A stretch of 63,005 nt of DNA, the filler included, from Actinomycetota bacterium (lineage in GTDB: Bacteria; Actinomycetota; CADDZG01; JAHWKV01; JAOPZY01): NCBI GenBank assembly GCA_025963875.1. It is 6 parts of 6 records of this genome, joined end to end, with 100 filler letters (N's around TTAATTAATTAA, not from the genome) between each part and the next. Parts side by side here need not be neighbours in the genome. Positions count along the whole stretch, not along the records: positions 1 to 17,305 come from JAOPZY010000256.1; 5 more parts are not named here. One strand, written 5' to 3'. Below are positions 381 through 18,635 of this stretch, piece by piece; the first letter of the stretch is position 1, and the number at the start of each line of letters is the position of its first letter. The notes under the pieces were generated by a model. The model did no database searches, was not told the DNA's origin, and saw only the letters and a program-made list of their open reading frames with translations. The translations under genes and the position numbers were made by a program.

Positions 381-454
381 GGGTTCACTCTCCTGCTATC
401 TGTGGCCGGTCACCTGATCCTACCTGCGAATCGGTCGCCCCTACACTTAGACGC

Positions 455-1763: not shown

Positions 1764-1868
1764 ATACCCATTATGGCGGTGAGTGGTGACAAAATGTGGC
1801 GTGTTTCGAGGTTAGGTAAAAAAGTGCTGCTATAGCTGACAAAATTACCTAACCTCCCGGCCCGAGGT

Positions 1869-3248
1869 CTAGCCCAGGGGGGTTCCGGCCGTCTCGATCG
1901 TCTCCCGGTAGGCAGCCGGCAGGACGAGGTCGTTCTCCACCGCCACCTTGCCGTTGGTGGCATCCACCAGCACCGTCGCCGGCTGGCCGTTCAGGTAGGG
2001 GGTCAGGTCGATGCTCGCCCGCTGCCCGGGCGTGACCCCCACGCTGGCAAGCGGGGCCGGCGCCAGCGGGCCGGCAGCGGTGAGGATCGTCACCTTGCAG
2101 AAGGCCTTGTCCGGGCCGTCGGTGACGAGGGCCAGGGTGTCGGTGCCCCCGGCGGCCGAGCCGGCCGCCACGACCCAGCGTGCCGCGGTGGCGGGGGCGC
2201 CCTGGACGGTCTGGTAGGCGCCCTGCGGCCCCACCGTCAGGCGCTCGGCAACGACGGGCACACCGTTGGTCGACGTGAGGATCGTTGCGTGACGGGTCCC
2301 GCCCGGGACCTGATCGGACACCTTGATCGCCTTTCGGCCCCCGGCGGGCACCGGCACGTCCTGGACCCCCACCGGTCCCGTCCCGCTCTCGACCATGTAG
2401 ACGGTGCTGACCAGCGCCTCGTGGTCGCTCGGGTTGGCCACGACGATGTCCTCTTCGCCCGAGGCCGGGACGTCGCCGCCGGGCAGCAGCCAGCGGGCGC
2501 TCGGGGCGGTGGCTCCCACGTCCAGGGCGACGCCGCGCGTCCCATCCCGCGCGGCCACCCGCAGCAGCCGGCCGACCACGACCCGGCCCCGTGACGCGGT
2601 GACGTCCAGCCCGAACGAGGCCATCTCCGGGAAGAAGTCGCCGAGGAACAGGGAGGTCTGGGAGAGCTGCGGGATCTCGACGTGGCTGAGACCGGAAGGG
2701 ATCTGGTCGCCCTTGTCGCCGAGCACGCGCACCGTCACGACCGCCTCTTCCGGGAAGGGGTTCGTCACGAGCAGGTAGCTGTCGTAGCCGGGCGCCGTGC
2801 TGGCGACGGGAAAGAGCCACCGCGTGCCCGGCTGCCGGCTGCACCGGCCCGTCGTCCCGCCGATGATCGCGGCGAGCGTCGAAACGTGGCTGCCGGTGGC
2901 CCCGCCGAAGGCCTCGACCGTGACCGGCACCTTGGCGGCCGACGGGGCGGCGGGTACGCCACCGAGGGTCCCCGCGCCGAGGTCCGCCTCGGCGGTGGCC
3001 CCGGACGCCCCCGTCCCCGAGCGGCGCACGTGGACCGGCCCGGCGCCGAGGTTGGCCGTCCAGACGGTCGACCCGAGGCCCTGCGCCGTCGGGGCCGGGC
3101 AGTACCAGGCCTCCGAGAGGGGCGCCGGGGTCGCCGAGACGGTCACCGGGCTGGCGGCGGTCCTCGAGGGCACGATGCCGTCGAGCGCCCAGGCCCCGCC
3201 CATGACGATCACGATCACCAGGGCGAAGGTGAGCTCCGCTCGACGCAT
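1869..3248 (-). CDS. DUF5719-like secreted/membrane-anchored protein
   Basis: Start MRRAELTFALVIVIVMGG overlaps the upstream GT2 stop (TGATG). WYCP, YLLVTNPF and VANPS repeats. Typical position after the actinobacterial GT2. Confidence 0.75.
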   Translation of the reverse strand: MRRAELTFALVIVIVMGGAWALDGIVPSRTAASPVTVSATPAPLSEAWYCPAPTAQGLGSTVWTANLGAGPVHVRRSGTGASGATAEADLGAGTLGGVPAAPSAAKVPVTVEAFGGATGSHVSTLAAIIGGTTGRCSRQPGTRWLFPVASTAPGYDSYLLVTNPFPEEAVVTVRVLGDKGDQIPSGLSHVEIPQLSQTSLFLGDFFPEMASFGLDVTASRGRVVVGRLLRVAARDGTRGVALDVGATAPSARWLLPGGDVPASGEEDIVVANPSDHEALVSTVYMVESGTGPVGVQDVPVPAGGRKAIKVSDQVPGGTRHATILTSTNGVPVVAERLTVGPQGAYQTVQGAPATAARWVVAAGSAAGGTDTLALVTDGPDKAFCKVTILTAAGPLAPAPLASVGVTPGQRASIDLTPYLNGQPATVLVDATNGKVAVENDLVLPAAYRETIETAGTPLG

Positions 3249-6200
3249 CAGCGACGCCCCTGGCGAGGGCGAGGGCGAGGGGCCTCCGGTGCCGGGGCCC
3301 GGGGGGTGGGTGCCACGACGCGCACCCGGGAGCTCGGCACCCGCGCCAGAGGACGCTCGGCCTTGACGTCCAGGAGCGGAGGGGGCCCTTTCCCGTCGGC
3401 CTTGTGCATCCGGGCTGCGAACGCCATTGCCAGCGCAAGCGCGATCAGCGCCCCTCCGCCGACCACCCAGGCAATGCGGATCCACTCCCCTGCGTAGCTG
3501 ATCCGGACGGTCCCGGAGGCGCCGGGCGGCACGGTGAAACGGTTGGCCCAGCCGAACGCCTCGCCGTGCTGCAAGCTCTCGACCCCGATGGTGGCGTTCC
3601 ATCCCGGGCTGTAGACCTCGCCCAGCACGAGGGAGCGGGACGGAATGGCCGCCGTCACGTGCCCGGAGAAGGACCCCAGCGACCGCCGCCCCAGACCGCT
3701 CTCCGCCGGTACGGGGGGCCACTGCGCCCGCAGGACCGCCTCGGGGTCGCTGCTGCCACTCGCCGCCGCGGCCTCGAGCGGCGGCGGCGCCAGGGCAGCG
3801 ATCGGGAGGGATCCGAGGTTGGTGTAGATGTCGACCTGGGCGAGCTGCTGCTGCAGGGCGAGGTCCTGCTGGATGATGACCGCCTGCATCGTGGCGGCGT
3901 CCGCGTGGTCGACGATCACGAAGCGGATCCCCGCGGTCGCCAGGAGGTGCCCGGCCAGATGGGTGCGCCCTGCCAGGAGCGCGTCGACCCCCCTGGACAG
4001 CCAGGCACCGGCCGGCCCACCGCCGGGCGGTGCCGTGTCGAGCAGGGACAGCCCGTCCGGACCGGTGACGACGTAGGGCACCGTCCTCTCCGGCCTGAGG
4101 CCCGTCCGGAGCGGGTCGACGAAGTGCTGCCCCAGCCAGAGGACGCGGAACTGGCTGTCGCTGGTGGCGGCCGAACCCTGCACCGCAGCCAGCGCCGCCG
4201 ACTCGGGACCGGTCCCCGTGACGGCGCTGGCCGGCGGGGCGCTCCACGATGCCAGCGTCGGTACCCAGCCGCCCAGCACGGCGGCGGCGGAGAGGATCGC
4301 CGCACCTGCCCCGACCGTATGGCGCAGACCCGCCGCATGGCGAGGGAGGTCCTGGGCAAGACCGGCCAGCAGGTAGCCGGCACAGGCAGCGAGGGCGACG
4401 AGCGGCAGGACCAGCCAGAGGGCCGGGGAGGCGACCGGCGCCGGGAGCCACCCCTTGGCGACCAGCCCCGCCCACAACCCGAAGACCACGATCACGCTGG
4501 CGAGGACGCGGACCTCCCGCCGCCGCGAGGTCGAGACGACCAGGAGCGATCCCACGACGATGGCGATCGCGGCGAGCCCGGCGAGGGTCGAGACACCGGG
4601 AGCCAGCAGCAACGCATGCGCAAAGCTCACCGGCGACCAGAGGGGCCGCAGGGCATTGCCCCCGCCCGCGCCGGCGAAGAGTGGGCCGAGGATGGCCCCG
4701 TGGGGGTGCAGGGCCTCGAGCGACCAGGGGACGAGGACCACGGCGGCGACGACCGAGGAACCAAGCAGCCACGCCAGCCGCCGGGGCGCCTCGCCCGACG
4801 AGGGACGCTCCCTGAGCGCCCGGAAGCCGGCGACGAGCCAGAGCGCAACGATCGCCACGAGCGCGCTCGGCGCCAACGCGACGACAACGGCGCTCAGCAG
4901 GGCGAGGCGCATGGCCTGGCGTGCGAGGGCGTCCGACGAGGCAGGGACCGCTGGCCGCACTCCCCCGCCCGGCGAACCCGGCGGGGCCGCGCCGGGGGCG
5001 GGGCCGAGCATCCGCAGGGCCATCTCGAGGAGGTACGGGGCCGCGGCGTACAGGGCCAGGGCGCCGAGGTCCCCGGTGACCATGGTGAGGCGCATGACCG
5101 GCGCCAGGGCATAGATGGCGACCGCCGCGATGCGGGCGGGGATGAAGGTCGTCCGCCGCTTGACGAACCGGTTGATGCCGAAGAGCCCGAGGGCGAGCAG
5201 CAGGCCGACCAGCAGCTTCTGGGCAAGCGCCGCGTTGCCGAACGCGGCGATCCCGACCAGCCAGAACAGCGGCAGGGCGGGCGACGGCGCCCCCGTGGTC
5301 CCGAGTCCGATCTCACGCCAACGGGCGAAGTAATCGCTGAGCAACCGGTGGGTCTCGACGGGGAACGGCCAGAGCGACCCGGCCCCCACCGGGGGCCCGA
5401 GCAGCACGTGGCGGGCGGCGAGCACCAGCACGAGGGCAATGAGGAGGGAGGCAAGCGCCGACGGCGACCGGGCCCAGCGCCCGAGGCGCGAGGCGATGGC
5501 GCCCGGGGTCAGGTTCGCGAAGGTCTTGGCGCCGAGCCGGACGGTCTCCTCGCCCCACTGCATGAGCCGGCGCTCGAGGAAGATCCGGGCGCGCGGAAGA
5601 TCCCGCACCATGTACCGGCGGACCCGCCGGTCGGAGATCTTCCGGCGTCGCTGGATCGCGCGCCGCCGCCGGGCGACGTCCGGCACGGTTTTGAGGAACC
5701 ACGCGTAGGCCCGCAGGTAGGGGGGGATCTCGCTGAAGCGCCGGAGGGCCGCCAGCAGCACCATCTCGGCCCCCAGCACGCCCGTGTAGAGCGCGACGAG
5801 CAGCAGCACCCGGGTCGTCGAGGTGTTCTTGGCGATGGTCCGCAACCGGTTGCGTCGGGTGAAGTAGCGGATGGACTGAGCGGGGGGACTCTCGCGCCGC
5901 CCCGTCGCCATCGCCATCGCATGGTAGAAGTACGCCTTCGGCGCCACCACCACGGGGAACCCCAGCATCCGGGCACGGATGCACAGGTCGAGGTCCTCCC
6001 CGAACAGGAAGTACGCGGGGTCCCAGGAGCCCCCCCGCTCCACCGTCGCCCGGCTGACCAGGATGCAGGCGCTCGTGACGAACAGGACGTCCCGGCGCAC
6101 GTCGTGCTGGCCCTGGTCGATCTCACCCTCCTCGAGGCCCGAGACCGGGTAGCCGAACTCGTCCGCCGACATCCCGACCTCGAGCAGGACCTCGGGCTCG

Positions 6201-6601
6201 TCCCAGGACAGCCCCTTGCCGCCGACCACGCCCGCCTCGGTCTCGAGGGCCGACGCGACGAGGAGGCCGACGCAGTCCTGGTCGAGAGCGACGTCGTCAT
6301 GGAGGAAGAGGTAGTACTCGGCCCTCCGGGCGTCCGGGGAGACCTCGAGCACCCGGTTGGCGGCGGCCCCGAAACCGACATTACGGCTGAAGTGCATGAC
6401 GGAGGCGTCGGGCAAGAGCTGCTCGACCAGGCCAGGCACCAGATCCCGATCCTCCGAGGCGTTGTCGACGACGACGACCTCGAGGGCCGGATAGGACTGG
6501 AGCGCGAGGGACTTGAGACAGGTGGGAAGCCAGCGACGCCCGTTGCGGGTCACCACGACCGCCAGGACCAGCGGCCAGGGGATTGCGTCCGGCTCGGTCA
6601 T
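3248..6601 (-). CDS. Large glycosyltransferase family 2 integral membrane protein
   Basis: N-terminal GT2 (VVVTRNG, VDNAS, NVGFGAAAN, LHDD, GEDLDLCIRA) followed by many hydrophobic segments. Start taken at ATG 6601. Confidence 0.88.
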   Translation of the reverse strand: MTEPDAIPWPLVLAVVVTRNGRRWLPTCLKSLALQSYPALEVVVVDNASEDRDLVPGLVEQLLPDASVMHFSRNVGFGAAANRVLEVSPDARRAEYYLFLHDDVALDQDCVGLLVASALETEAGVVGGKGLSWDEPEVLLEVGMSADEFGYPVSGLEEGEIDQGQHDVRRDVLFVTSACILVSRATVERGGSWDPAYFLFGEDLDLCIRARMLGFPVVVAPKAYFYHAMAMATGRRESPPAQSIRYFTRRNRLRTIAKNTSTTRVLLLVALYTGVLGAEMVLLAALRRFSEIPPYLRAYAWFLKTVPDVARRRRAIQRRRKISDRRVRRYMVRDLPRARIFLERRLMQWGEETVRLGAKTFANLTPGAIASRLGRWARSPSALASLLIALVLVLAARHVLLGPPVGAGSLWPFPVETHRLLSDYFARWREIGLGTTGAPSPALPLFWLVGIAAFGNAALAQKLLVGLLLALGLFGINRFVKRRTTFIPARIAAVAIYALAPVMRLTMVTGDLGALALYAAAPYLLEMALRMLGPAPGAAPPGSPGGGVRPAVPASSDALARQAMRLALLSAVVVALAPSALVAIVALWLVAGFRALRERPSSGEAPRRLAWLLGSSVVAAVVLVPWSLEALHPHGAILGPLFAGAGGGNALRPLWSPVSFAHALLLAPGVSTLAGLAAIAIVVGSLLVVSTSRRREVRVLASVIVVFGLWAGLVAKGWLPAPVASPALWLVLPLVALAACAGYLLAGLAQDLPRHAAGLRHTVGAGAAILSAAAVLGGWVPTLASWSAPPASAVTGTGPESAALAAVQGSAATSDSQFRVLWLGQHFVDPLRTGLRPERTVPYVVTGPDGLSLLDTAPPGGGPAGAWLSRGVDALLAGRTHLAGHLLATAGIRFVIVDHADAATMQAVIIQQDLALQQQLAQVDIYTNLGSLPIAALAPPPLEAAAASGSSDPEAVLRAQWPPVPAESGLGRRSLGSFSGHVTAAIPSRSLVLGEVYSPGWNATIGVESLQHGEAFGWANRFTVPPGASGTVRISYAGEWIRIAWVVGGGALIALALAMAFAARMHKADGKGPPPLLDVKAERPLARVPSSRVRVVAPTPRAPAPEAPRPRPRQGRR

Positions 6602-6659
6602 GCCGAAGGAGGACCGAGGCGAGGACTGGGGAGGGGCGGCGGGAGAAGAATGGGGCAAA

Positions 6660-7703
6660 TTATAGGGGCGGTTTGCGACTGCGACGGCCGCGGCGCCCGG
6701 CATCGCCTTCTTCGGGGGAGTAGCTCCCCCGAACCCCCTGTTCGCGAACCGGGGTCGGGCCGGCCAGGTCGTGCGGGCCAGCCGGGGCCGACACCTGGTG
6801 CGGGCCGGACGGCCCGGACACGTAGTTCCCACCGGGAGGCGGCTGGCCTCCCACCATCCCGACGCCGTAGGCATCGAGCGGAGGCGGCGGCAAACTGCCG
6901 TCGCGTTTGCGGGTCCGGCCGGCATCCCTGCGCTGCTTGCGGTTGTCGTCCGCCTCACGCAGGCCCGCAGCGATCCGGTTGCGCTCCCGCGGCTTGGCGA
7001 CCCCTGCGAACTCGTCCAGGAGGTCGGCCAGGATCTGGTCGCGCTGGCGCTCGAGGCGCTCCTCCCGCTCGGCCAGACGGGCGAACAGGGACCCTTGAGC
7101 GACCGCGAGCTCGGATGCCGCCCGCACCAGCCGGCTCTGGACCACCTGCATGATCCGACCGACGGGGTCGAGGGCCTTGAGGATCGCCTCCGCAACCTCC
7201 TGCTGGCGGGTTTCGATGTTCTCGCCGAGCTCCTTGAGGGCAGCAACGGTGGTGGCCGTCAGGTCCCCGTCCCCGAACGAGCTCTGCAGCTCGCCGACGC
7301 GGTTCGCCAGGACCGACATCCCCTCCTGGGTGCGCCACTCCACGGCTTCGAGCGTACGGGCGATTCCGTCGAGCTTGACCGTCAGCGCCTTCTTGAGGGA
7401 CGCCTGCTCGCCTTCCAGGAGTTCGATGCGGTGCTGGAGGGACTCCATCGCATCCTGGCGGGCGACCAGCTCGACGACACCACGCATCCCGTCGAGCTCG
7501 GTCCGCACGGCCGTGAGGGCGTCACGGGACGCCTGCAGGACCTCCATGAAGCCCTGCTGCTCGCGTCCCTGCTCCGCGATCGCCGACTCCAGCAACTTGT
7601 CGAGGCGGCTGCGGAAGCCGGGGTTGTCGGGGTACTCAGTTGCGATGGCGTCCCACCTGGATGTTCCTCCTGCCGGATCGCGGACATTGCGCTTTGCGGG
7701 CAT
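6660..7703 (-). CDS. Hypothetical coiled-coil protein with Pro/Gly-rich C-terminal tail
   Basis: 347-aa ORF with host-like codon usage and heptad-rich E/L/R/A composition. Confidence 0.7.
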   Translation of the reverse strand: MPAKRNVRDPAGGTSRWDAIATEYPDNPGFRSRLDKLLESAIAEQGREQQGFMEVLQASRDALTAVRTELDGMRGVVELVARQDAMESLQHRIELLEGEQASLKKALTVKLDGIARTLEAVEWRTQEGMSVLANRVGELQSSFGDGDLTATTVAALKELGENIETRQQEVAEAILKALDPVGRIMQVVQSRLVRAASELAVAQGSLFARLAEREERLERQRDQILADLLDEFAGVAKPRERNRIAAGLREADDNRKQRRDAGRTRKRDGSLPPPPLDAYGVGMVGGQPPPGGNYVSGPSGPHQVSAPAGPHDLAGPTPVREQGVRGSYSPEEGDAGRRGRRSRKPPL

Positions 7704-7707
7704 CTCG

Positions 7708-7737
7708 TTTTCGCAGACCGCCCATTTTCGCAGACCG
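7708..7737. repeat. 13-bp direct repeat pair TTTTCGCAGACCG
   Basis: Exact copies at 7708-7720 and 7725-7737, just upstream of the 7703 start codon. Confidence 0.7.
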
Positions 7738-7943
7738 GGGCCTCACCGGCACGGATACCGGTGCTCACTACGTCGCCCGGCCGGCGCCTCACCAAATCTC
7801 TCGGTGCAGACCGGAGAGTTAAATGAAGGTTAAATTCATCCAGTAAATTCAACAAAGTACCTCAATCATTCCCGTTCCAGGTCTTAAACACTTACAATCA
7901 CGCCTCCCGGAGAACCGGCACGAAGTTAACAGAAGAGAAATGG

Positions 7944-8375
7944 ATGAAAACTACGTGCCCAAAGTCGGTGATCATTCTTGGAGCCGACGGATACCTCGGC
8001 TGGCCGATGTGCCTGCACCTGTCGCGGCCGGGCCATCGGGTCGTCGCGGTCGACAACCTGGTACGGCGGCAGTGGAACGTCGAGGGCGGCTCCTACAGCC
8101 TCGTGCCGATCGCTCCGATGGAGCAGCGGGTTGCACGCTGGCGGGCTGAGACCGGGCTCGAGATCGAGTGGCGGCCGATGGACATCTGCGATGGGGAGCC
8201 CCCACCCGCCTCTTCGGCGAGGTCAAGCCCGAGGCCGTGGTCCATTTCGCCGAGCACCGGTCGGCTCCCTTCTCGATGATCGACCAGGAGCACGCCGTCC
8301 GCACCCAGATCAACAACGTCGTGGGGAGGCTGAATGTCATGTTCGCCATCAAGCAGGCGGTTCCCGACTGCCACC
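7944..8375 (+). pseudogene. sqdB: UDP-sulfoquinovose synthase-like (SqdB/Agl3) NAD-dependent epimerase, frameshifted and truncated
   Basis: VIILGADGYLGWP...VDNLVRR...SLVPIA in one frame continues as VVHFAEHRSAPFSMID...QINNVVG.LNVMFAI...PDCH in another (shift near 8195-8210). Similarity then stops. Confidence 0.85.
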
Positions 8376-8901
8376 GTACGGCGATGGATACCCAGACGCC
8401 GACCGGGAAGCCGACCCCGTGTCGGCGTCGCTGCCGCTGCCTGGTCCGCGCTGAAGGGCCGAGTCCGACCCCAATGGCCACGGGCGCCGCGCTTCCCCCA
8501 CGACGAGCAGACGCAGGGAAAGTCGGGCAAACCTCCAGTGGTGGGGACGAGGGCTCCAGGCGGAGAGGCGCTTGATCTCCGCGGAAACTGGTAACGGGCC
8601 GTGTTCCCTCGGCGCGGGCCAGTGACACACCAGGATTTGTGGCGACGAAATCCAAACCTGGCTCGGGATCAACAGGTTGAAACTAAACTGGTCACATCTT
8701 TTCCCTAAGAGTGCAAACGTATCGTATGTTACCGAATGGGTGGGGGTCGGTCGAGTCAAGCACTACGGATGGAGGTGTCAAGGGGGACGTGGTGGCGCGC
8801 AATCCGACGGCTCGCTGGGGAGGAGTGGCGGCGGCCGGCAAGGTGATGGCTGGCTCGGTCCGGGCAATGGTTGTCTCGTCCCGGCCGGTTTGGGTCCACC
8901 G

Positions 8902-10083
8902 GTGAACCTCCTGCGGTACATCTACCTGCCCCTGGGCGCCCTGGGCCTGGTGCGGTGGCTGTCTTGGCTGGTGCACCGGATCCCCGCCGCCTTTTACCGC
9001 CCCGTCACCACCGGCTACCGAGAGTCCTTGGCCGTGGTGACGCCGGTCTACCAGGAGGATCCCGACATTTTTCGTCAGGCAATAGAGTCGTGGCTTGCCA
9101 ATGGCGTGGATGAAGTGATTTGCGTGATCGATGTCACTGATACGGTCTGTCGCGATATCGCCGCCGAATATCCGGTACGGATCATCATGACGGAGGTCCC
9201 GGGCAAGCGCGATGCGCTGCGCAAGGGGTGGGAAGCGGCATCTACAGTCCTCGTCGCTCTGGTCGACTCGGACACGATCTGGGCCCCCGACGTCCGCGCC
9301 CGGGTGTGCGAGCCCTTCGTCGATCCGAAGGTCGGGGGTGTCGGCACCCGCCAGAGCGTCTTCAAGCCGCGTACACTCTGGCAGAACGCAGCAGACATGT
9401 ACCTGGACTACCGCTATTTCGATGAGCTCGCAGCCCAAACGGTCGTGGGACAGGCGGTCTCGTGCCTGTCAGGGCGTACGGCGGTCTATCGCCGACTCCT
9501 GCTCGAGGACGTCAGTGAAGAATTCATGAACGAGACATTTCTCGGCATTCCCTGCCTGTCCGGCGATGACAAGCGCCTGACGTGTCTGACCATCAAGCGG
9601 GGCTACAAGACCTGTCTCCAGCGCAATGCACGCGTATGGTCCACATTCCCGGCCAAGTTCACCGGGTTTCGCAAGCAGCGCCTGCGGTGGGCCCGCAACA
9701 CATGGCGGAGCGACCTCAGAGCGATCGGCGAAGGCTGGGCGTTCAGGCATCCGATGCTGGCGTTCATGATGGTGGACAAGATGGTGAGCGGCTTCACCCT
9801 CCTCAGCTCGCTTGCCTTCCTCATACTCGCGGTAGTCCTCGGGCACTGGCTCATCGCCCTCACCCTGGTGTGCTGGTGGTTTCTCAGCCGCTGCGCCAAG
9901 CTACTCCCCCATCTGCGCAACCGCCCCGAGGAGCTGCGCATCGTCCCCGCATTCATCATGGTGTCGATCGTGATGGCGGTCATCAAGATCTGGGCACTCA
10001 TCACGATCAAGGAGCAGCGCTGGCTCACTCGCCAGGTACAGGTCGAACATGGCGAGGTTGTCCGCACCCAGGGAGACTCATAG
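8902..10083 (+). CDS. Processive glycosyltransferase family 2 (hyaluronan synthase/NodC/Alg8-like polysaccharide synthase)
   Basis: PVYQE, GKRDAL, VDSD (DxD), CLSGRTAVYR, GDDKRLT, QRLRW (QxxRW); N- and C-terminal TM helices. GTG start at 8902 inferred. Confidence 0.88.
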   Translation: MNLLRYIYLPLGALGLVRWLSWLVHRIPAAFYRPVTTGYRESLAVVTPVYQEDPDIFRQAIESWLANGVDEVICVIDVTDTVCRDIAAEYPVRIIMTEVPGKRDALRKGWEAASTVLVALVDSDTIWAPDVRARVCEPFVDPKVGGVGTRQSVFKPRTLWQNAADMYLDYRYFDELAAQTVVGQAVSCLSGRTAVYRRLLLEDVSEEFMNETFLGIPCLSGDDKRLTCLTIKRGYKTCLQRNARVWSTFPAKFTGFRKQRLRWARNTWRSDLRAIGEGWAFRHPMLAFMMVDKMVSGFTLLSSLAFLILAVVLGHWLIALTLVCWWFLSRCAKLLPHLRNRPEELRIVPAFIMVSIVMAVIKIWALITIKEQRWLTRQVQVEHGEVVRTQGDS

Positions 10084-11775
10084 TTGATTCGACGCCTGCT
10101 TGCCGGACTGCTGTGTCTCTTCGCCCTCGTGGGGCCCGTGGTTGCTGCTCTGAAGACCCACGTCCTGGCGCACCGCCACCCCGCGGTAGCCGTAACCAGG
10201 GGCGCCTCACCCGTCGTGACCACACCACCGCCGCCGGTGGTGTCGCCCGGTCCGGTATCCCTTCATGACCGTGTCGTACTCATCGGACCCACCGCCATTG
10301 AGCTCGTCCAAGGCCCCGCCGTCGTTCGGTCAATCCCGTTCGCGGGCGGCACAACCGTGGGCTTCGAATCAGTGGTCACAGCAGTGGCCGACCCCGCCTG
10401 GTTGGCCGAGGACGGTCCCGGCATCTTTGCGGTTCGGGCCGCTGTGGTGCAGTCGCCCTCCACGGACCTGACTTTCGCCGCGCCGGCGGTGCGGGAAGTG
10501 CGCCTGATCAATCTTCCCGAGGTGTACCTGGCCGGTGATCACGCGCACGCAAGGTTCGACGGCGTGAGGGTCATCTCATGGGACCCGCCGGCAGGCCAGC
10601 CGGTCCTCCGAACGGTTGCGGGTCGCCCGTTCGTGCTTTACCAGAATGGGTCCCGGGTCGACATGGCCAAGAGCGAGATGGCCTACCTGGGATCGGATCG
10701 GGCACCCGCCGTCGGTGTTGCGTGGACGAAACATAGCTCCGGGACCGTGACCGACTCGCGCTTCGACCACAACGCCGTCGGCGCCTATGTGAGCCTGTCC
10801 GACCACTTCATCATGCAGCGCAACACGTTCGAAGGCAATGCAAAGGACGGACTCCAGGTGAGAGAGGGAAGCACCGCCGCCCTCCTGGACGGCAACGAGG
10901 CGAGCGGCAACGGGGGCAACGGCATCCTGGTCACCGGTGCGTCAACGGGCAGCACGGTGAGCGGCAACCACGTGCACAACAATGCCGGGGACGGCATCGC
11001 CGTCCGGTTGAGATCCGACACCACGACGCTCACGGGGAACCAGGCCGATCACAACGGGGCCAATGGCCTCACCATCTCGGGCTCTGGGGCCACCTCGGTA
11101 ACCCGCAACCGTTCAGTGTCGAACCGAGTCGGGATCAACGCGACCGAAGGCACAAGTGGCGCAATCGTCCGGGCCAACCAGGTCGCCGGCAACCAGGTTG
11201 GCATCGCGATCGGCGATGAGGCCCCGGGGACGATCGTCTCTGCCAACACCGTCCTGGGACCGGGCAAGCTCGGGATCCTCATAGCCGGCCCAGGTACGTC
11301 CGTCGTCGGCGGATCCGTGAGCGAGGCCACCGTCGGTGTCGACGTGCGGGTTAACGCCATCCTCGACTCAGTCTCCCTGACGCAGGTCAGCCGGGGGGTT
11401 GTCGTCCGGCACTCAGCGGTGCTGGATGGCCGGTCGCTGCACGTTGTCGCCGACAGCATCGGGATCGCCTTCGAACCTGGGGGGATGGCCAACGTCACCG
11501 GTTCCGACGTCCGCGCTATCGTCCCGCTATCGGGCGGTAACCTCGCTGGCCATACCGGGACATCGCTGTCCTCCACCCGCCCCGTCGCTCCATTGACGAT
11601 CTTCGGAGCCGCGGTCCTGCTCGTGGCGGTGCTGGTCGAGTTGATTCGGAGGATCCGCGAGCGCCACGATCCTCCGGTGGCGCCGGCGCCGCCCACCTCC
11701 AGCCCCAGTGGCCGGTCAGAGGACCCCCTTTCCTTGCCGGAGCTGGCCCATGATGTGAACGTAGTGCGTGGGTGA
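10084..11775 (+). CDS. Right-handed parallel beta-helix protein (AlgG/NosD-like), signal peptide plus C-terminal TM anchor
   Basis: Repeated N-x-x-x-G-N-x-x-(D/N)-G-I rungs. VISWD...GRPFV...SEMAYLG segment resembles AlgG-type proteins. Hydrophobic N- and C-termini. Starts directly after the GT2 stop. Confidence 0.8.
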   Translation: MIRRLLAGLLCLFALVGPVVAALKTHVLAHRHPAVAVTRGASPVVTTPPPPVVSPGPVSLHDRVVLIGPTAIELVQGPAVVRSIPFAGGTTVGFESVVTAVADPAWLAEDGPGIFAVRAAVVQSPSTDLTFAAPAVREVRLINLPEVYLAGDHAHARFDGVRVISWDPPAGQPVLRTVAGRPFVLYQNGSRVDMAKSEMAYLGSDRAPAVGVAWTKHSSGTVTDSRFDHNAVGAYVSLSDHFIMQRNTFEGNAKDGLQVREGSTAALLDGNEASGNGGNGILVTGASTGSTVSGNHVHNNAGDGIAVRLRSDTTTLTGNQADHNGANGLTISGSGATSVTRNRSVSNRVGINATEGTSGAIVRANQVAGNQVGIAIGDEAPGTIVSANTVLGPGKLGILIAGPGTSVVGGSVSEATVGVDVRVNAILDSVSLTQVSRGVVVRHSAVLDGRSLHVVADSIGIAFEPGGMANVTGSDVRAIVPLSGGNLAGHTGTSLSSTRPVAPLTIFGAAVLLVAVLVELIRRIRERHDPPVAPAPPTSSPSGRSEDPLSLPELAHDVNVVRG

Positions 11776-11789
11776 CAGGGCCCGAATCC

Positions 11790-13058
11790 TCAACCACACG
11801 GCGCCATCAGACCTAGATCTCCCATCGAGATCCCCGTCTGGATCCTCGAAGTGTCGAAGGTATTCCCGCAGAGGGTTCCCTGGCTTCCGATCTGCTTGTT
11901 GGTGATCGACACGCCTGCCGCCGGCGAGAAGCTGTTGTTCTGGATGGCGTTTCCCCCTTGGAGGTATGGCCCCGAATCGCTCCCCATCTTGAGCCCATAC
12001 CCGCGGCTCTGCGTCACGCGGTTCCCAACGATCACGTTGTTGTAGCCGCGCAACTCGATGTTGCTGCCGTTGAAGCTGAGCGGTTCGTCGTTGTAACCAC
12101 AATCGTTGTTCTGGAAGCGATTGCCATAGGAGTTCTCCTTGACATCCAGGCACTCCGAGCCGAACGTGTTGATGGTGTTGTCGTGGATGTAGTTGTTGTT
12201 CGTGGTGTCGCTGGCGAACATGGGTTGATCCGTGGAGCTCGGACTGGTGCCGAGGTACACGCCCTCGCCATTGTGGTACTTGTATTGCGAGACGTCGTGG
12301 CCCTGCCCGAACAGTCCACACCACTGGATGACGGAGTCCGCTACCTCATTGTGATTCGCTGCGTTGCGCATCCGAAGACATTCACCCCCAGCGCCATTGA
12401 GGAACATGTTCCGGATGATGATGCCGGTGAGGTTGCGGGAAGTGTCGGCAGCTCCGATGTAGATAAGGTGGCCGTCGGCCACCTTGGTCTGGACCGAGTC
12501 TTTGAAGGCACGCACGTTGGAGAGTGACTTGGGGTAGGCCGTCGTCGACAAACGTTCCTGGCCGTCGATCGTGAAACCGTCGAAGACGTAATAGCTGTGG
12601 TTCACACTCACCAGCCGGGAGGTCCCGAAGAGGACTGCCTTGTACCGGCCAGACCAATCCTTTCCAGTTTCGGGACCCTTGATCGTGATGGGATGTCCGG
12701 ACGTGCCGGCGGTGAGGGTGGTGAGTTGCTCGTGGTAGGCACCTGCCGCCAGCTTGATCGTGTCACCGGATCGGACGCGCTTCAGGGCTGTCTGGATCAG
12801 CCGAAGAGGCTGGGATGACGACTTGCCGCTATTGCTGTCACTGCCCTTGGGACTCACGTAGTACGTAATCGCAGAGGCTGTCGCAGCGGATGCCGTGGTG
12901 ATGCCCGTTGGGACTCCTGCGAGGCTGCCGGAGGGAGCCAGCGCGATCCCCGTCAGAAGCAGCGATGCCAGCGCGCCGGCACTTCCAAACCTCACCACGC
13001 GCGACAAAAAAAGGTGGGAGACGGACCCATGTTGCAGAAGCAGCCTTAGCATTTTCAT
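11790..13058 (-). CDS. Secreted beta-helix protein (DUF1565 N-terminus), probable polysaccharide lyase (PL31-like)
   Basis: YYVSPKGSDSNSG...P...IQTAL...GDTIKLAAGAY...P.TIKG, then GECLRMR, GEGVYLG and ECLDVKE motifs. Start uncertain. Confidence 0.72.
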   Translation of the reverse strand: MKMLRLLLQHGSVSHLFLSRVVRFGSAGALASLLLTGIALAPSGSLAGVPTGITTASAATASAITYYVSPKGSDSNSGKSSSQPLRLIQTALKRVRSGDTIKLAAGAYHEQLTTLTAGTSGHPITIKGPETGKDWSGRYKAVLFGTSRLVSVNHSYYVFDGFTIDGQERLSTTAYPKSLSNVRAFKDSVQTKVADGHLIYIGAADTSRNLTGIIIRNMFLNGAGGECLRMRNAANHNEVADSVIQWCGLFGQGHDVSQYKYHNGEGVYLGTSPSSTDQPMFASDTTNNNYIHDNTINTFGSECLDVKENSYGNRFQNNDCGYNDEPLSFNGSNIELRGYNNVIVGNRVTQSRGYGLKMGSDSGPYLQGGNAIQNNSFSPAAGVSITNKQIGSQGTLCGNTFDTSRIQTGISMGDLGLMAPCG

Positions 13059-13222
13059 CGCGCGGCACCAATCGATCGAGCGAGCGGGGGACCCTGCTCC
13101 TAGTTCATCGGTCGGCACCGACGACCCATGAATAGGCCGTTTGAGCCATCTCGGGTCAGGGGATGCAAACCCGCGCACGTCTGGGCGCTACCACTGGCTG
13201 TTGGTTGGGAGAGGTTCCGGGC

Positions 13223-14146
13223 CTAGCCCGTCGTCGCCGCGGCCGGCTCGTTCACGGCGTGAGGACTAACGGTGAAGTCCGCAAAATCGGCATACGTGTC
13301 GACGGGCGTTGCCCAGGTGGAATCGCCTCCACCGAAGAACGTGGAGAACAGCACACCCTCGATCTGCAGGCTGGCACTGGAGCGAAACAGGACCCCGGTT
13401 TCCGCGAGGACGCGCTTTCCATCGAACCACACCGTAATCCGGCCGTTGCCCTTCCCGACATCGTTGAGGACGATCTCCTGCTGGATCTCGTGCCACGTGC
13501 CGGTCGAGAACGTCCAGTTTCCTCGACCGATGGAGGTCCCGTGCTCCTGGCTGGTCGGCAGGTAGGCATACACCTCGCCTGCCCCCCCTGCCCGCCACAT
13601 GTACCGGGTCGACAAGCCATTCGTGCCATCTGGTATCCGTCTACCACTGGTCTGGATCCCACCATAGAGACCGGGTAGCTTTCCGCCTTTCACAAAGTCA
13701 AACCCGTTAGGAAATCGGACGAAATATCGAAGAGCCAGCGAGTCAGCAGGGACTGAGTTCCGAGGAACAAGATACCGCTGCCCTCCGCCGACGGGAGCAC
13801 CGTTGTTGTTCTTCACGAGCTCGCTGGCAGAACCCTTGGGGTAATGCACGCGGAGGATCAAGGGGAAGCGTCCGGCCGGCTCGGGAATGACCTCCATGTT
13901 CTGGTCGCCGAAGCTTCCACTTTGGCGGGTCGTGAACGCTGGCGACCAGAATGCGTCCACCGGGATCGCGCTCTGGATCCCACGCCGGGCAGGCGGGGCC
14001 GTGTGCCGCACCGATGTAAGGATGGCCAACGCCAAGGCGAGAAGGGCGATTGCCACTACGAGTGCCACGCGACCGCGCTTCGATGGACGGCTTGATTCGT
14101 CAGGCGGGAGGCTGCGCCGGTACTCGTCGACATCGGGTTGCCCCAT
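13223..14146 (-). CDS. Polysaccharide lyase family 14 protein with N-terminal membrane anchor
   Basis: YPKGS, YFVRFPNGFDFVKGGKLPGLYGG, LSTRYMWR, GEVYAY and FSTFFGG are characteristic of PL14. TM helix near the N-terminus. Confidence 0.88.
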   Translation of the reverse strand: MGQPDVDEYRRSLPPDESSRPSKRGRVALVVAIALLALALAILTSVRHTAPPARRGIQSAIPVDAFWSPAFTTRQSGSFGDQNMEVIPEPAGRFPLILRVHYPKGSASELVKNNNGAPVGGGQRYLVPRNSVPADSLALRYFVRFPNGFDFVKGGKLPGLYGGIQTSGRRIPDGTNGLSTRYMWRAGGAGEVYAYLPTSQEHGTSIGRGNWTFSTGTWHEIQQEIVLNDVGKGNGRITVWFDGKRVLAETGVLFRSSASLQIEGVLFSTFFGGGDSTWATPVDTYADFADFTVSPHAVNEPAAATTG

Positions 14147-14468
14147 TCGGAGAGTATAGAACCGCGCTTCCAGAGCGGGTGGGCGACACGGGCATCGAAC
14201 GGGTCCCCGTGACCGGCCGTCCCCCGTCGCCCGCTGTACCTCCGTCGCGCGCTGTACAGGCAACCAATCCTTCAGCGGATTGGGTCCATTTCAATGCCAA
14301 TGTTTCGGGTATGTGAACGGCGGGTATCCGTACTTTTTACATTAACTTTTCGTAATGGTTTACCGGCATTTCCCCTTGACTAGCCGATAGCACTCATGGG
14401 CAGACTAACGCGATAAGTTTGTCACTACGCCGGCGAAGCGTACAAAGTGGATCCTCCCGGGGGTGGTC

Positions 14469-15485
14469 ATGGCACGCGTCATTGTGGTGGGGTCTGGAGT
14501 TGTTGGCACAGCGTCCGGCAAGGGTATGGCCCGATTGGGTCACGATGTCACATTCGTGGACGTGAATCCGGTTCGGCTGGAAGCCTTGGCCAGCGAGGGC
14601 CTCGATGCAACGGATCGCATCGATCTGCGAGGAGCAGCGGCCGTGGTCCTCATGACGCTGCCCACTCCCTATGTTGACGGACAGGGCTATGACCTGTCTG
14701 CCTTCATGGCGGGGACCAGGGCGGTGGGAGAGGCCCTGCGGCACGCCCGGGAGCTGCACACAGTTGTCGTCCGTTCCACGGTTCCGCCTGGGACCACGGA
14801 AGGCATGATCCAGCCACTGCTGGAACAGACCTCCGGCAAGCGGGTGGATGAGGGGTTCGCTCTGGCCTCCAACCCTGAATTCCTTCGCGCCCTGTCGGCC
14901 CTCGAGGATTTCCTCTCCCCATGGATGACCGTGATCGGATCCCGGAATCCAGCCACCATCGAGCGCTTGGAGACTCTCTATCGGCCGCTGGGCGGAGAGA
15001 TGCGTACATTCCCCAATCCCGCAACCGCCGAAATGATCAAGTGCTGCCACAACATCTACAACGCCACCAAGATCAGCTTCTGGAACGAGATGTGGCTCGT
15101 GGCAGAGCGCCTGGGCATTCCGTCCAACGACGTAGCCAAGACGGTGGCACGCTCCTCGGAGGGATCCTTCAACATCGATTACGGCATCCGCGGAGGGGCC
15201 CCGTACGGCGGAGCATGTCTCCCCAAGGACGCCAGGGGCTTCCTCGGATTCGCCGAGGGCCTCGGCATGACCATGCCGCTGCTCGGGGCGGTTGTCGCCG
15301 TCAACGCGCTGATGGAACAGGTGGAGAGCCAGGAAGTCGTGGCTGCCGAGGCGCTGCTCCTGCAGGCCCGCGAGGTCCGGGCCCCCGTCATCGACCTCAC
15401 GGCTGTCGAAGAGGAGAACTGGGTAGCAGTCGAAGAGGAGAACTGGGTAGCAGAAGAGGCGGCCTCCGAGCAGCTCTCGGCCTGA
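14469..15485 (+). CDS. UDP-glucose/GDP-mannose dehydrogenase family protein (short form)
   Basis: GSGVVG Rossmann motif, RSTVPPGTT, NPEFLR, AEMIK...NATKISFWNE, YGGACLPKD with catalytic Cys. Confidence 0.92.
   Translation: MARVIVVGSGVVGTASGKGMARLGHDVTFVDVNPVRLEALASEGLDATDRIDLRGAAAVVLMTLPTPYVDGQGYDLSAFMAGTRAVGEALRHARELHTVVVRSTVPPGTTEGMIQPLLEQTSGKRVDEGFALASNPEFLRALSALEDFLSPWMTVIGSRNPATIERLETLYRPLGGEMRTFPNPATAEMIKCCHNIYNATKISFWNEMWLVAERLGIPSNDVAKTVARSSEGSFNIDYGIRGGAPYGGACLPKDARGFLGFAEGLGMTMPLLGAVVAVNALMEQVESQEVVAAEALLLQAREVRAPVIDLTAVEEENWVAVEEENWVAEEAASEQLSA
15405..15452 (+). repeat. Perfect 24-bp tandem duplication (VEEENWVA x2)
   Basis: GTCGAAGAGGAGAACTGGGTAGCA at 15405-15428 and 15429-15452. 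Confidence 0.95.
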
Positions 15486-15588
15486 GGGCCCTACGACGCC
15501 CGTCTTGCTCCGCCGATAGAGTGCCGAGACTGGGATGTCCGGGCGACCAGATACTCAATCAACTCAGGCCTCGAAAGGAAAGGGGAAG

Positions 15589-16491
15589 GTGAAGCAGAGC
15601 CCAAAGCACAGACTGCGGCCCAGCCGCGCCTGGTCCTGGGCTGGTCTCGTGGCGATATCCGCATTGGCCCTCGCGGGGGCCGGGGCAGCCTTGTCCGGAA
15701 CCGCAGCGGCTGTGGATGGGCCCGGGGCAACCTCCGCCCTCGCCCCTGACGCCGTAGTCAATCCGCTTGGGAGCACCGTCAGCGCGACCGCCGGGGGCGG
15801 CCAAGACAGTAAGAGGCACGCGCCAGGCCAGGCCGATCCCACGCCGGTGCCCACGCCCACCTGGGACGATGATGACGGTCTTCCGCCCACACCCACACCG
15901 GTTGACATGCCCACACCGACGCCGACCCCGGCGGACACTCCGCCGCCCACCCCCACCCCCACTCCGACACCGCTGCCCACGCCCACCCCTGCTCCCGCAC
16001 CCGTAGTGGCAGCCATCGAACCCAGTCCCGCCCAGACGGTGATCGAGCCCTCACCGGCTCTAACGACTCCGAGCCCAGCAGCCGTCCCCGAGGTCGCAGC
16101 AGTCCACAACACCGCACCCCACGAGACGGTGCCCCATGAGCACATCCCTCACCGCGTAACCCCGCATTCGTCAACGCCCCACGAGCACGTTGCGCACGAG
16201 CACCTTCCGCACTCCGTGGCCACGCAGGCATCCGGGTCGTCTGCGGTGATCAAGCACTTCGACAACCTCCAAACGCAACCGAAAGACGCGCCGGCGCCGT
16301 CGCCTACCCCCCACTTTCTCAGTCGGCTGGGTCACCCCCAAACCGCAGCAAGCGAGGGGGCCTTGGTGATCGTGCTGGCCTGCGTCTTGTACCTCGTTGG
16401 CGTCGCCATCTCAAGGTCGAGATGGGGCTCGGAACGCTCTACCCGACGCCGCTTCCTGAAGGCAGATCCAAGCCGCCACAGCCAGGACTGA
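15589..16491 (+). CDS. Secreted Pro/Thr-rich surface protein with His-repeat region and C-terminal TM anchor
   Basis: GTG after a purine-rich RBS; signal peptide, PT repeats, His every fifth residue, TM helix and basic tail. Confidence 0.7.
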   Translation: MKQSPKHRLRPSRAWSWAGLVAISALALAGAGAALSGTAAAVDGPGATSALAPDAVVNPLGSTVSATAGGGQDSKRHAPGQADPTPVPTPTWDDDDGLPPTPTPVDMPTPTPTPADTPPPTPTPTPTPLPTPTPAPAPVVAAIEPSPAQTVIEPSPALTTPSPAAVPEVAAVHNTAPHETVPHEHIPHRVTPHSSTPHEHVAHEHLPHSVATQASGSSAVIKHFDNLQTQPKDAPAPSPTPHFLSRLGHPQTAASEGALVIVLACVLYLVGVAISRSRWGSERSTRRRFLKADPSRHSQD

Positions 16492-16675
16492 CTTCGAGAC
16501 AGTCAGACAACTCAGCGGTGCCGTATGCTGTGCGCGCCCGCCCTCGTCGCCACCGTTCTGGCCACCCAAGTGCCCGCCGGGCCCCAGCGGGTTGCTCGTT
16601 GACTGCCATGAGATGGTCGGATGGTGGGCGCGTCCGGACTTTCCGCCGACCGCCTAACTCCGGACCCCGCTCATC

Positions 16676-16969
16676 ATGCTGGCCGTCGCGGCATCGATCC
16701 TTGCTCCCACGGCCCGCCACACCCTGGCCGTGGTGGTGACCCTCAACGTGGTGGTCATCGCCCCGATCTTCGCCCTCTTCTTCCTTCTCTCCCTCTCCTA
16801 CGGACAGCTGCGGGAGCTTCGCTACCTGCCGCTGTACTTCCCGTTCCAGATGGCCAGGCGCCTGGCGAAGTTCGAGTCGACGCTTTCGCTGCCCACGCGC
16901 CCCTCGCCGTTCCTCCGGCGGAGGGGCCGCGTGCCGGGCCCGCAGCCGGCCGACCTCCTGAAGGTCTGA
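16676..16969 (+). pseudogene. Probable C-terminal membrane fragment of a glycosyltransferase
   Basis: Hydrophobic 97-aa segment ending [26 protein letters not shown], resembling GT2 C-terminal TM regions. No intact N-terminal domain upstream. Confidence 0.45.
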
Positions 16970-17013
16970 GCCTGGGAGGGAGCCCCGAGGCACCCGGCTA
17001 TAGTCGATCTGAG

Positions 17014-17305
17014 ATGCAAGATCCTGTCCAGCCCGACCGCACCGACGAGCTCACGGCCCTGCTGCGCGAGCGGATCCTGGTCCTCGACGGCGCCATGGGC
17101 ACGATGGTCCAGACCTACGACCTCGAGGAGCGCGACTACCGGGGCGAGCGGTTCAAGGACTGGCACTGCGACCTCAAGAACAACAACGACCTGCTGGTGC
17201 TCACCAGGCCGCAGATCATCAGGGAGATCCACCGCCGCTACCTGGAGGCGGGGGCGGACATCATCGAGACGAACACCTTCGCCGCCCAGGCGATCTCCCA
17301 GGCGG
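17014..17305 (+). CDS. metH: B12-dependent methionine synthase, 5' part (truncated by contig end)
   Basis: [15 protein letters not shown]...[10 protein letters not shown]...[16 protein letters not shown]. Confidence 0.93.
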
Positions 17306-17405
17306 NNNNNNNNNNNNNNNNNNNNNNNNNNNNNNNNNNNNNNNNNNNNTTAATTAATTAANNNNNNNNNNNNNNNNNNNNNNNNNNNNNNNNNNNNNNN
17401 NNNNN
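17306..17405. other. Artificial contig spacer
   Basis: N-run, TTAATTAATTAA (stops in all frames), N-run; 100 bp. Confidence 0.98.
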
Positions 17406-18635
17406 GATCAGCAGGTTGATCCCTGGAATCAAAGAGTACCCGACATTGCCTGCGGCGCTCGTTGCCGCAGCTACAGCCGTGTAGAAGCCCGCAGCGAGGC
17501 CGGAGGTTGCCACCGACCAAGTCACCGACGACATGCCGCACCCGGAACAAGAAGCGGGCCGGACTGCCAGTTGCCCGCCGAAGAAGGGCGTGAAGGTGAC
17601 GGCAACGGAGGCGATGGCCGCCGACGTGTCAGTCGCCGAGCCCGTGAGCGCAGCGCCCGGTGGGATGAAGAGACCGTGGTCGTTGATCGCCGGGACCGGC
17701 AGGAGGGGAGCGACCAGGGCGTCCTCTCGGGCGCGGTAGTCCGTCAGTGCCTCCGGCGAGACTCCCGCATGGACAAAGCTGTCCAAGCCTGCAGCGAGAC
17801 GGTCTGTATCCACGTACGCGCCGGGGTGAGCTGCCTTGATCGCGGCCGCAAGATCGGTGGCCTGCTCGAAGGGCACGGCCATGTCCTCGTAGGCCTCCGC
17901 CAGGAGCAGGCGGGCACGAACGCCGGCGGCGTGGAGGATCGGGCTGGCGACGCCAAGGGAGCCGGGGTCGGCGCCGAACGCGGCGCCTGCCCAGCCCTGG
18001 ATGAGGGTTGGGCCGAGCGTCTGGTCGAAGGCATAGTCGAAGGGATCGAAGGCACTTTCCGTCGCCAGGCCGGTCAGGTCGGTGGGCGCAGCCTGGCCGA
18101 TCGCGCACCCGAGATCGGGGAACGTCGCAGCCAGGAGGGTGGCGAGATGCCCTCCCGCCGAGCTGCCGGTGGCGCAGACCTCGTAGCCGGGTCCGACCAT
18201 TTGGCGCACTCGCTGGTAGAACCAGGAGACGTCGGCGATGCTGTCGGCGCACCCTCGGTAGGTGATGTTGACCGTGAGCCAGCCGGCGGCCCGCCACCGC
18301 TCCACCTCCAGCCGCTCTGTCGCGGCCGCGGCTGGGCCGACGAAAAACCAGGCGCCGCCGTGGATCGTCAGCATGACGGCCTTCGGGCGAAGCCCTGCGT
18401 ACGCACCGGTCGGGAGGCCGACCTCGTAGTAGGCAGGAGCTCCCGGGCCGAGGCCGGTCGTCGAGACGCCCGGGCCGAGCGGCGTGGAGATCGGACCCGC
18501 GTCGATGGGCACGCAGGGGCTGCCCGGCAGCCCGAGGTTCGGTGGGTAGGTCGCTGCCTGAAGGGGGGTGGGGGTCAGCGGCCCGGCGACCGTGATGGCC
18601 GCGACCAGGGCCATCGTAATCCGGCGCGAGAGCAC
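17406..18635 (-). CDS. Secreted alpha/beta hydrolase (esterase/lipase) with C-terminal Ig-like segment; 3' end at contig edge
   Basis: Signal peptide, HGGAW oxyanion motif, GSSAGG nucleophile, D..VP and H of the catalytic triad. Confidence 0.85.

Follow-up and report, generated by a model that had tools for sequence, protein, structure and literature searches.

Among bacteria, the making of alginate has been worked out in detail for Pseudomonas and Azotobacter. According to reviews, Michel et al. (2010) proposed that brown algae took their GDP-mannose dehydrogenase (GMD), mannuronan synthase and mannuronan C5-epimerase (ManC5-E) from an actinobacterium. In a 2024 analysis the bacterial proteins closest to ManC5-E were actinobacterial (~30% identity), and there was a distant actinobacterial cluster of dehydrogenases, with the actinobacterial origin of the brown-algal GMD not strongly supported; it also stated that Streptomyces is not known for an alginate pathway and that the mannuronan synthase of brown algae has yet to be validated. 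Here a block of six genes is described at positions 8902 to 16491 of a 63,005-nucleotide stretch of DNA (the window) from an Actinomycetota bacterium (assembly GCA_025963875.1). The window consists of contigs of a metagenome-assembled genome (MAG) joined by N spacers, and the true genomic context of the block is window 1-17305 only, a single contig of 17,305 bases. A characterised actinobacterial system of this kind was not found in the full-text literature, a search that did not cover subscription papers and supplements, in agreement with an earlier note on the same DNA. That note had called the system undescribed, which holds for the system as a whole and not for every part, since GMD-like, GT2 and ManC5-E-like genes have been noted as separate components of Actinobacteria in the brown-alga literature.

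Five of the six genes are best explained, with a probability that we put at roughly 55%, as a rearranged copy of a conserved accessory cassette, found in Actinomycetota, for the synthesis, export and trimming of a beta-1,4 polyuronate, most likely polymannuronate (alginate-type). Coordinates and profile searches agree with the six open reading frames (ORFs) that the earlier note had named and with the folds and families assigned to them there. They are as follows, with lengths in amino acids (aa); HAS is hyaluronan synthase, PL polysaccharide lyase, NDP nucleoside diphosphate and PT proline-threonine.

8902..10083, plus strand: HAS/NodC-like processive GT2, 393 aa, candidate polyuronate (mannuronan) synthase-translocase (PF13641, 108.9 bits)
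10084..11775, plus strand: AlgG-like beta-helix protein, 563 aa, with two membrane anchors and the YG-DPHD motif lost; probable non-catalytic synthase partner or guide (PF13229, 86.3 bits)
11790..13058, minus strand, frame open to 13178: secreted PL31-like beta-helix protein, putative polyuronate lyase, 422 aa (top Foldseek and profile match 6kfn)
13223..14146, minus strand, frame open to 14263: membrane-anchored PL14 polysaccharide lyase (PF21294, 203.2 bits)
14463..15485, plus strand: short two-domain NDP-hexose 6-dehydrogenase (DH), 340 aa, candidate brown-alga-type GDP-mannose dehydrogenase (PF03721 and PF00984, TIGR03026)
15535..16491, plus strand: PT-/His-rich protein with two transmembrane (TM) segments, 318 aa, a neighbour outside the conserved cassette (without Pfam or NCBIfam family)

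When one genome per prokaryotic species was scanned for the GT2, 196 relatives were confirmed, of which the 80 best loci were analysed by tblastn with the six local proteins. Carriers among the 80 are Streptomyces, Pseudonocardia, Frankia, Thermopolyspora, Dermatophilus, Piscicoccus, Acidimicrobiia and many MAGs. A short DH-like gene was found somewhere in the locus in 72, and in 65 (63 of the 77 with enough upstream DNA) it immediately precedes the GT2, with the same orientation and a gap of at most 600 nt. The beta-helix protein was matched in 69 loci (63 of 68 where 2.5 kb or more of downstream DNA is available); for PL14 the count is 42 and for the PL31-like protein 13. One or other lyase accompanies the GT2 in 54 (39 of 49 where both flanks extend for 6 kb or more), and both are present in a single locus, from Piscicoccus intestinalis NBRC 104926 (L022); as the two types are nearly never found together, they are read as alternatives acting on one polymer. 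The earlier note had staked its proposal beforehand on co-occurrence elsewhere, and the genes do recur together in these loci. The arrangement is more than chance, for it recurs in many actinobacterial lineages. For the GT2 and the DH alike, the nearest relatives all belong to Actinomycetota. The cassette is at the same time rare: with the phylum sampled evenly, an orthologue (E <=1e-90) turned up in 5 of 400 other genomes, four of them in one genus.

In four of the 80 loci the GT2 and the beta-helix protein share one open frame of 943-1141 aa (L045:2123-4951, L068:9128-12100, L069:9953-12907 and L077:8015-11437), with the DPH motif inside the fusion in L045 and L068, and such fusions argue that both proteins work together. 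A fusion of DH and GT2, to which long frames in L016 and L024 had seemed to point, was rejected; the two are in frame without stops in none of the 65 loci where they adjoin, and the long frames are open alternative frames of high-GC DNA.

Searches with the AlphaFold2 (AF2) model of the GT2 (predicted local distance difference test, pLDDT, 77.5) by Foldseek placed hyaluronan synthases on top with a TMq of 0.75-0.78, against at most 0.66 for BcsA and at most 0.57 for Chs1, despite an identity to the HAS structures of 17-21%. The best sequence match in the PDB is the chlorovirus HAS 7sp7, at 69 bits. Among NCBIfam models the best match is NodC, aligned across its whole length, at 104.4 bits versus a cut-off of 550. 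The motifs DSD, GDD and QRLRW are invariant across 19 orthologues, TM segments are predicted in the C-terminal part, and the start of the gene is backed by a 97%-identical homologue of 393 aa. The GT2 is predicted to fold like a processive, membrane-integrated synthase with HAS architecture, a fold that does not reveal the donor sugar; together with the invariant processive motifs it bears out the processive synthase proposed earlier. No match to the Alg8 or PilZ families was obtained in the six proteins or in the scanned flanking genes. A look-up in the ESM Atlas, which is given as a lead only, returned GT2 look-alike clusters that include none from brown algae.

These matches could be taken to mean that the GT2 makes a hyaluronan-, chitin- or NodC-type polymer or oligomer containing N-acetylglucosamine (GlcNAc), with the DH supplying uronate for a heteropolymer as in has operons. 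Public annotation of the orthologues is generic, either 'glycosyltransferase' or an automatic 'hyaluronan synthase', and the order DH-GT2 recalls that of hasB and hasA in the has operon. Such a product is nevertheless quite improbable, given the distance of the NodC score from its cut-off and an identity to HAS of only about a fifth. In the literature consulted on both families, PL14 and PL31 have no listed activity on hyaluronan or chitin. The beta-helix epimerases of the AlgG type act on homopolyuronates, and the cassette holds no GlcNAc-supply, deacetylase or PL8 genes.

The DH is made up of NAD-binding and central domains (PF03721, PF00984) and ends where the C-terminal nucleotide-sugar domain, PF03720, which is absent, should begin. 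TIGR03026 matches it with 204 bits (cut-off 189.8) over profile positions 2-304 of 413, and the match of AlgD (1mfz) stops at residue 302 of 436. In related loci the DH gene encodes about 292-354 aa. All of the 120 best database homologues are 295-371 aa long and without PF03720, and of the best 150 representatives at 50% clustering 103 are of 270-360 aa and 16 of at least 400 aa. The shortness of the local protein is not a truncation accident, because its homologues are likewise short and without PF03720. A catalytic set of GxGVVG, T106, NPE, K193, N197, C252, K255 and D256 is invariant in 34 homologues. The nucleotide-sugar 6-dehydrogenase of the earlier note thus stands as regards the family, TIGR03026 scoring above its cut-off, and has to be revised as regards the AlgD or HasB type, in favour of a short two-domain form.

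Saccharina japonica has two GDP-mannose dehydrogenases, of 320 and 315 aa, which carry the motifs GxGxVG and GGxCLPKDV and convert GDP-mannose to GDP-mannuronate in vitro. What sets them apart from bacterial GMDs includes a Val in the Gly motif and, two residues ahead of GG, a Pro. The local DH reads G10-S-G-V13-V-G15 and P247-Y-GG-A-C252-LPKD, as described for the brown-algal enzymes, and among the 103 short representatives the Val-type Gly motif is found in 83 and the canonical GxGYVG in one. By its size and motifs the DH is a candidate GDP-mannose dehydrogenase of the brown-alga type. Tenhaken et al. (2011) reportedly described the Ectocarpus enzyme as being without a C-terminal domain of ~120 aa. 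A mapping of Ala146/Val147 of SjGMD1 on local A143/L144 was dropped, as the motif offsets (4 to 10) disallow it.

In the main rival explanation the same machinery would make beta-1,4-glucuronan, with the DH producing UDP-glucuronate, the GT2 polymerising it and the PL14 and PL31-like proteins acting as glucuronan lyases. With the family profile the top PDB match is AlgD (1mfz, 196.2 bits) versus 194.2 bits for the archaeal UDP-glucose dehydrogenase (UGDH) 3vtf, which taken on its own is a tie; a search with the single sequence has 3vtf on top, and of the NCBIfam models those of UDP-glucose dehydrogenases match best (AglM, 174.9 bits). UDP-sugars are the substrates of every neighbour of the GT2 in fold or sequence, the chlorovirus HAS binding UDP-glucuronate, and a 2023 paper calls the genes of glucuronan biosynthesis unknown. 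On the other side the DH resembles dehydrogenases proven to act on GDP-mannose in its size and in two special features of its motifs, and two canonical three-domain dehydrogenases are encoded elsewhere in the same genome.

Several further observations were made on the DH family. Public annotation names its homologues '2-dehydropantoate 2-reductase N-terminal domain-containing protein'. The C-terminus of the local protein (window 15400-15485) holds an acidic tandem repeat, VEEENWVA x2, beyond the ~300 aa usual in the family. In Dermatophilus and Piscicoccus (L009, L013, L021, L022) the DH is 34-36% identical to the local one, compared with 62-64% for the GT2, and is a divergent subfamily of the same length and position. 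Short-DH look-alike clusters in the ESM Atlas, again a lead only, are labelled mostly as phages (Uroviricota) and Bathyarchaeota, also as Actinomycetota, and one viral cluster is automatically named GDP-mannose 6-dehydrogenase.

The lyases bear on the same choice of polymer. The AF2 model of the PL31-like protein (pLDDT 85.2) has as its top Foldseek match 6kfn, the PL31 enzyme PsAly (E 2.9e-9, TM-score 0.77 on the target), and the family profile also ranks 6kfn first (E 3.6e-8); the general profile label is DUF1565/Pel9A-like beta-helix. PsAly prefers polymannuronate (polyM) and has catalytic Tyr184 and Lys221. These residues correspond to the family-invariant Y268 and K307, a single offset of 34 between chain index and published numbering fitting both. 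The gene probably starts at 13058, as judged from a 99%-identical homologue of 422 aa, and the protein has a hydrophobic N-terminal signal region.

The second lyase matches PF21294 with 203.2 bits, the cut-off being 27. Among solved structures the nearest relative is AkAly30 of Aplysia (5gmt, 109.2 bits, E 1.9e-30), with the GGKLPG and YAY stretches aligned, whereas the chlorovirus protein vAL-1 (3a0n) scores 25 bits. A review lists AkAly30 as a polyM lyase and vAL-1 as a glucuronan lyase, EC 4.2.2.14. The start is probably the ATG at 14146, the PL14 proteins of Streptomyces being 298-304 aa long, and a TM anchor covers residues 66-84 of the long ORF. Both lyase assignments of the earlier note hold, the one by fold, profile and conserved catalytic residues and the other by its profile score. 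The TM and signal segments place both lyases and the beta-helix protein outside the membrane.

A glucuronan product would suit the founding PL31 enzymes, one of them from Streptomyces hygroscopicus, which were reported as endo-beta-1,4-glucuronan lyases, and vAL-1 in PL14. The local PL14 protein is however far closer to AkAly30 than to vAL-1. A second argument against it comes from the supply of precursor. In 14 Streptomyces loci and in L055 a nucleotidyltransferase gene directly follows PL14 (16 of the 80 loci by tblastn, two weak matches of 33-34% identity being involved), and in eight of these loci a phosphomannomutase/phosphoglucomutase (PMM/PGM) gene comes next. The nucleotidyltransferase is closest to mannose-1-phosphate guanylyltransferases, the enzymes that form GDP-mannose, with 112.6 bits for human GMPPB versus 76.9 for UDP-glucose pyrophosphorylase, and no GalU-type match was found there. 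A third is the YG-DPHD motif of the relatives, which is described as typical of the catalytic site of mannuronan C5-epimerases. Taking both sides together, glucuronan is an unlikely product, if the strongest of the competitors.

The beta-helix protein, whose gene start abuts the GT2 stop, is homologous to AlgG (4ozy/4nk6, E 2.4e-12, over residues 92-354) and has TM segments at residues 5-23 and 503-521. The AlgG model NF038177 gives 44.3 bits versus a cut-off of 700, which makes it a homologue and not an equivalog, although no specific relative other than AlgG emerged from the profile searches. All 12 aligned orthologues have YG-DPH-D/T and a downstream His; the local protein alone deviates, at Y255, D258, P259, H260 and H279, so that AlgG 'YGIDPHDRS' is aligned to local 'DGLQVREGS' and QVRE replaces DPHD. 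It keeps the fold positions, both anchors and a conserved LELIRR-RER tail. A YG-DPH epimerase motif was not found in any of the six frames of contig 1-17305, nor another AlgG-like gene in the same genome, which is 94.6% complete. The protein is most likely a non-catalytic partner and not an epimerase, to judge from these substitutions, and with the motif lost epimerisation is unlikely in this genome. Of the tethered AlgG-like protein proposed in the earlier note the fold and the tether are retained, then, and activity as an epimerase is improbable. Of the 80 loci, 45 have YG[LFIV]DPH[DT] encoded downstream of the GT2 in the same orientation. The carrier of the motif is the tethered protein itself in MAG-type cassettes and, in Streptomyces, a second beta-helix gene behind a motif-less first. 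In L024 two separate YGFDPHD genes (~8127 and ~10130) were seen downstream of one GT2. A complex prediction for the GT2 and the beta-helix protein gave scores of 0.03, 0.46 and 0.03, without controls, and is used for neither side.

Every accessory enzyme with relatives of known substrate points to a beta-1,4 homopolyuronate, and most of them to mannuronate, for which reason polymannuronate is favoured. Of the two products that the earlier note had left side by side, the alginate- or mannuronan-like one is preferred and the hyaluronan-like one is the weaker. In the mechanism proposed the cytoplasmic two-domain DH would oxidise GDP-mannose to GDP-mannuronate with NAD+, by way of its conserved Cys, and the HAS-fold GT2 would polymerise the sugar and thread the chain through its own membrane domain. 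Outside the cell and beside the synthase, the doubly anchored beta-helix protein would handle the emerging chain. In many relatives this protein or a second copy carries the mannuronan C5-epimerase motif, which is lost here, and the local polymer would probably be unepimerised. The secreted PL31-like and the membrane-anchored PL14 lyase would then cut the chain by beta-elimination, possibly for release, length control or turnover. The PT/His protein would be a lineage-specific neighbour.

A number of points weigh against polymannuronate as the product of a working local system. The whole mechanism is deduced from sequence and predicted structure. The GT2 has its nearest relatives among enzymes that use UDP-sugars (HAS, NodC, chitin and cellulose synthases), and an Alg8-type match is lacking. 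The DH scores almost equally with the archaeal UGDH, and the 2024 analysis found the actinobacterial DH cluster to be ~30% identical to both the GMD and the UDP-glucose dehydrogenase (UGD) of brown algae. PL14 and PL31 both also hold beta-1,4-glucuronan lyases, and the Cys-Cys loop said to set the polyM specificity of AkAly30 is not conserved in the PL14 protein. Neither lyase is present in the available DNA of 26 of the 80 loci, some of them on short contigs, and the 80 include many related Streptomyces and are not independent. To these must be added the loss of the epimerase motif in the local copy, and its base composition. The G+C content at third codon positions (GC3) is 0.76-0.80, compared with 0.90 in a large GT2 gene of the same contig, and is also lower than in most ORFs on the other contigs of the window; the local copy could be recently acquired or decaying.

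It may accordingly be asked whether the local block works at all. It might be a horizontally acquired, rearranged and decaying remnant, or its lyases might degrade foreign alginate or glucuronan beside an unrelated GT2. Besides the lost motif, the GC3 and the rarity of the family, the local gene order is atypical, as the DH lies downstream, beyond two inverted lyase genes, and not directly upstream of the GT2 as in the 65 loci mentioned, and both lyase types are present. Moreover, a LacI-family regulator and an ABC (ATP-binding cassette) sugar-binding protein follow PL14 in L005:15719-18293, in L043:16370-19168 and in 7 to 9 further Streptomyces loci; these suggest uptake of the lyase products there and would suit the import of oligomers. 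Nothing similar lies on the local contig, whose scanned genes include none for uptake or uronate catabolism. All five cassette ORFs are intact, the GT2, the DH and the PL31-like protein retain their catalytic residues, the GT2 stop and the beta-helix start still abut, and the beta-helix protein has kept both anchors and its C-terminal tail. With lyases accompanying the GT2 in 54 loci in addition, a defunct or purely degradative block has little probability.

The sixth gene of the block lies outside the conserved set. Its product, the PT/His protein, has TM segments at 36-54 and 275-293, and a Pro/Thr-rich stretch and a run of His-x-His-like repeats were seen between the anchors. It was matched by tblastn in none of the 80 related loci, a count in which a distant relative of so low a complexity could be missed. 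The surface PT/His protein of the earlier note is thus an ORF with two TM segments and not a cassette member; that it is a metal-binding surface protein is a guess. The large GT2 gene (window 3248-7246, minus strand, GC3 0.90) encodes a protein of 1332 aa with a GT2 domain of non-processive type at residues 227-490, followed by at least 10 membrane segments. It was considered as a further cassette member and rejected, being near the cassette in just one of the 80 loci. Flagellar genes were likewise rejected as context, since they are on another contig and so are not neighbours. The scanned genes of contig 1-17305 include no PilZ, AlgK/AlgE-like or acetylation families, and over that range the absence of Alg44/PilZ, AlgK, AlgE and acetylation genes claimed in the earlier note holds. 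The N runs of the window lie at 17306-17405, 25900-25999, 44996-45095, 50753-50852 and 59028-59127, and ORFs that cross a spacer, such as 16621-17361 and 17358-18635, are artefacts or cut genes.

The cassette pairs a short DH of brown-alga type, a HAS-fold synthase, AlgG-type enzymes and polyuronate lyases, and as it is carried by cultured Streptomyces and Piscicoccus the proposal is testable. It is a candidate both for a polyuronate synthase that does without Alg8 and for the part of actinobacteria in the brown-alga alginate story. The cassette would further enrich actinobacterial biology by a new matrix or capsule polymer and offer a compact set of two to three genes for making polyuronates. 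A bolder proposal, which is tentative and on the doubtful side of even, is that the cassette is the long-postulated actinobacterial alginate-type pathway, with the GT2 as a second kind of mannuronan synthase independent of Alg8/Alg44, and that the GT2, with the short GDP-mannose dehydrogenase and the DPHD beta-helix enzymes, represents the bacterial lineage that gave brown algae their alginate genes. If that were true, the cassette GT2 would point to the mannuronan synthase of brown algae.

Class I HAS (chlorovirus CvHAS, Xenopus HAS1 and streptococcal HasA with hasB/hasC) are the best structural match of the GT2 model (TMq 0.75-0.78). Size is similar, the model likewise runs from an N-terminal helix through a GT-A domain to a C-terminal membrane bundle, and in both a dehydrogenase gene adjoins that of the synthase. 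The differences are an identity of ~20%, partners (AlgG-like, PL14, PL31-like) that fit a homopolyuronate, and a DH that is not a full-length UGDH. Bacterial glucuronan, as made by Sinorhizobium meliloti M5N1CS and Peteryoungia rosettiformans, is an acidic homopolymer that is cut by members of PL14 and PL31, and its producers make a trimming lyase. It differs in that most of the accessory evidence in the cassette favours mannuronate; the comparison is one of polymer and lyases.

The alginate system of Pseudomonas and Azotobacter shares with the cassette the presence of a DH, a GT2 synthase, an AlgG homologue and a lyase in one locus, as well as the YG-DPHD motif and GDP-mannose supply genes that are found in relatives, the latter in some of them. 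Its synthase is of the Alg8 type and works with the PilZ co-polymerase Alg44, whereas the cassette GT2 has a HAS/NodC-type fold and no PilZ partner. The AlgD of Pseudomonas has three domains and the cassette DH is without the C-terminal one; the lyase there is the PL5 enzyme AlgL, here PL14 and PL31-like. Outer-membrane export (AlgK/AlgE) and acetylation (AlgI/J/F/X) have no counterparts in the scanned contig genes, and unlike AlgG the beta-helix protein has a membrane anchor at either end and, in the local copy, no catalytic motif. The cassette works like the Pseudomonas alginate operon and is not a member of its type, since most of the defining features that were looked for are different.

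The brown-algal pathway is eukaryotic and its genes form dispersed multigene families. Brown algae use lyases of family PL41. The features held in common with it, as compared with published descriptions, are the size of the DH and its GxGxVG and P-x-GGxCLPKD motifs. The brown-algal ManC5-E enzymes have DPHD as well, and their closest bacterial relatives are actinobacterial. On the features compared, the cassette is most likely an Alg8/Alg44-independent polymannuronate (alginate-type) system, the parts of which resemble those of brown seaweeds more than those of Pseudomonas.

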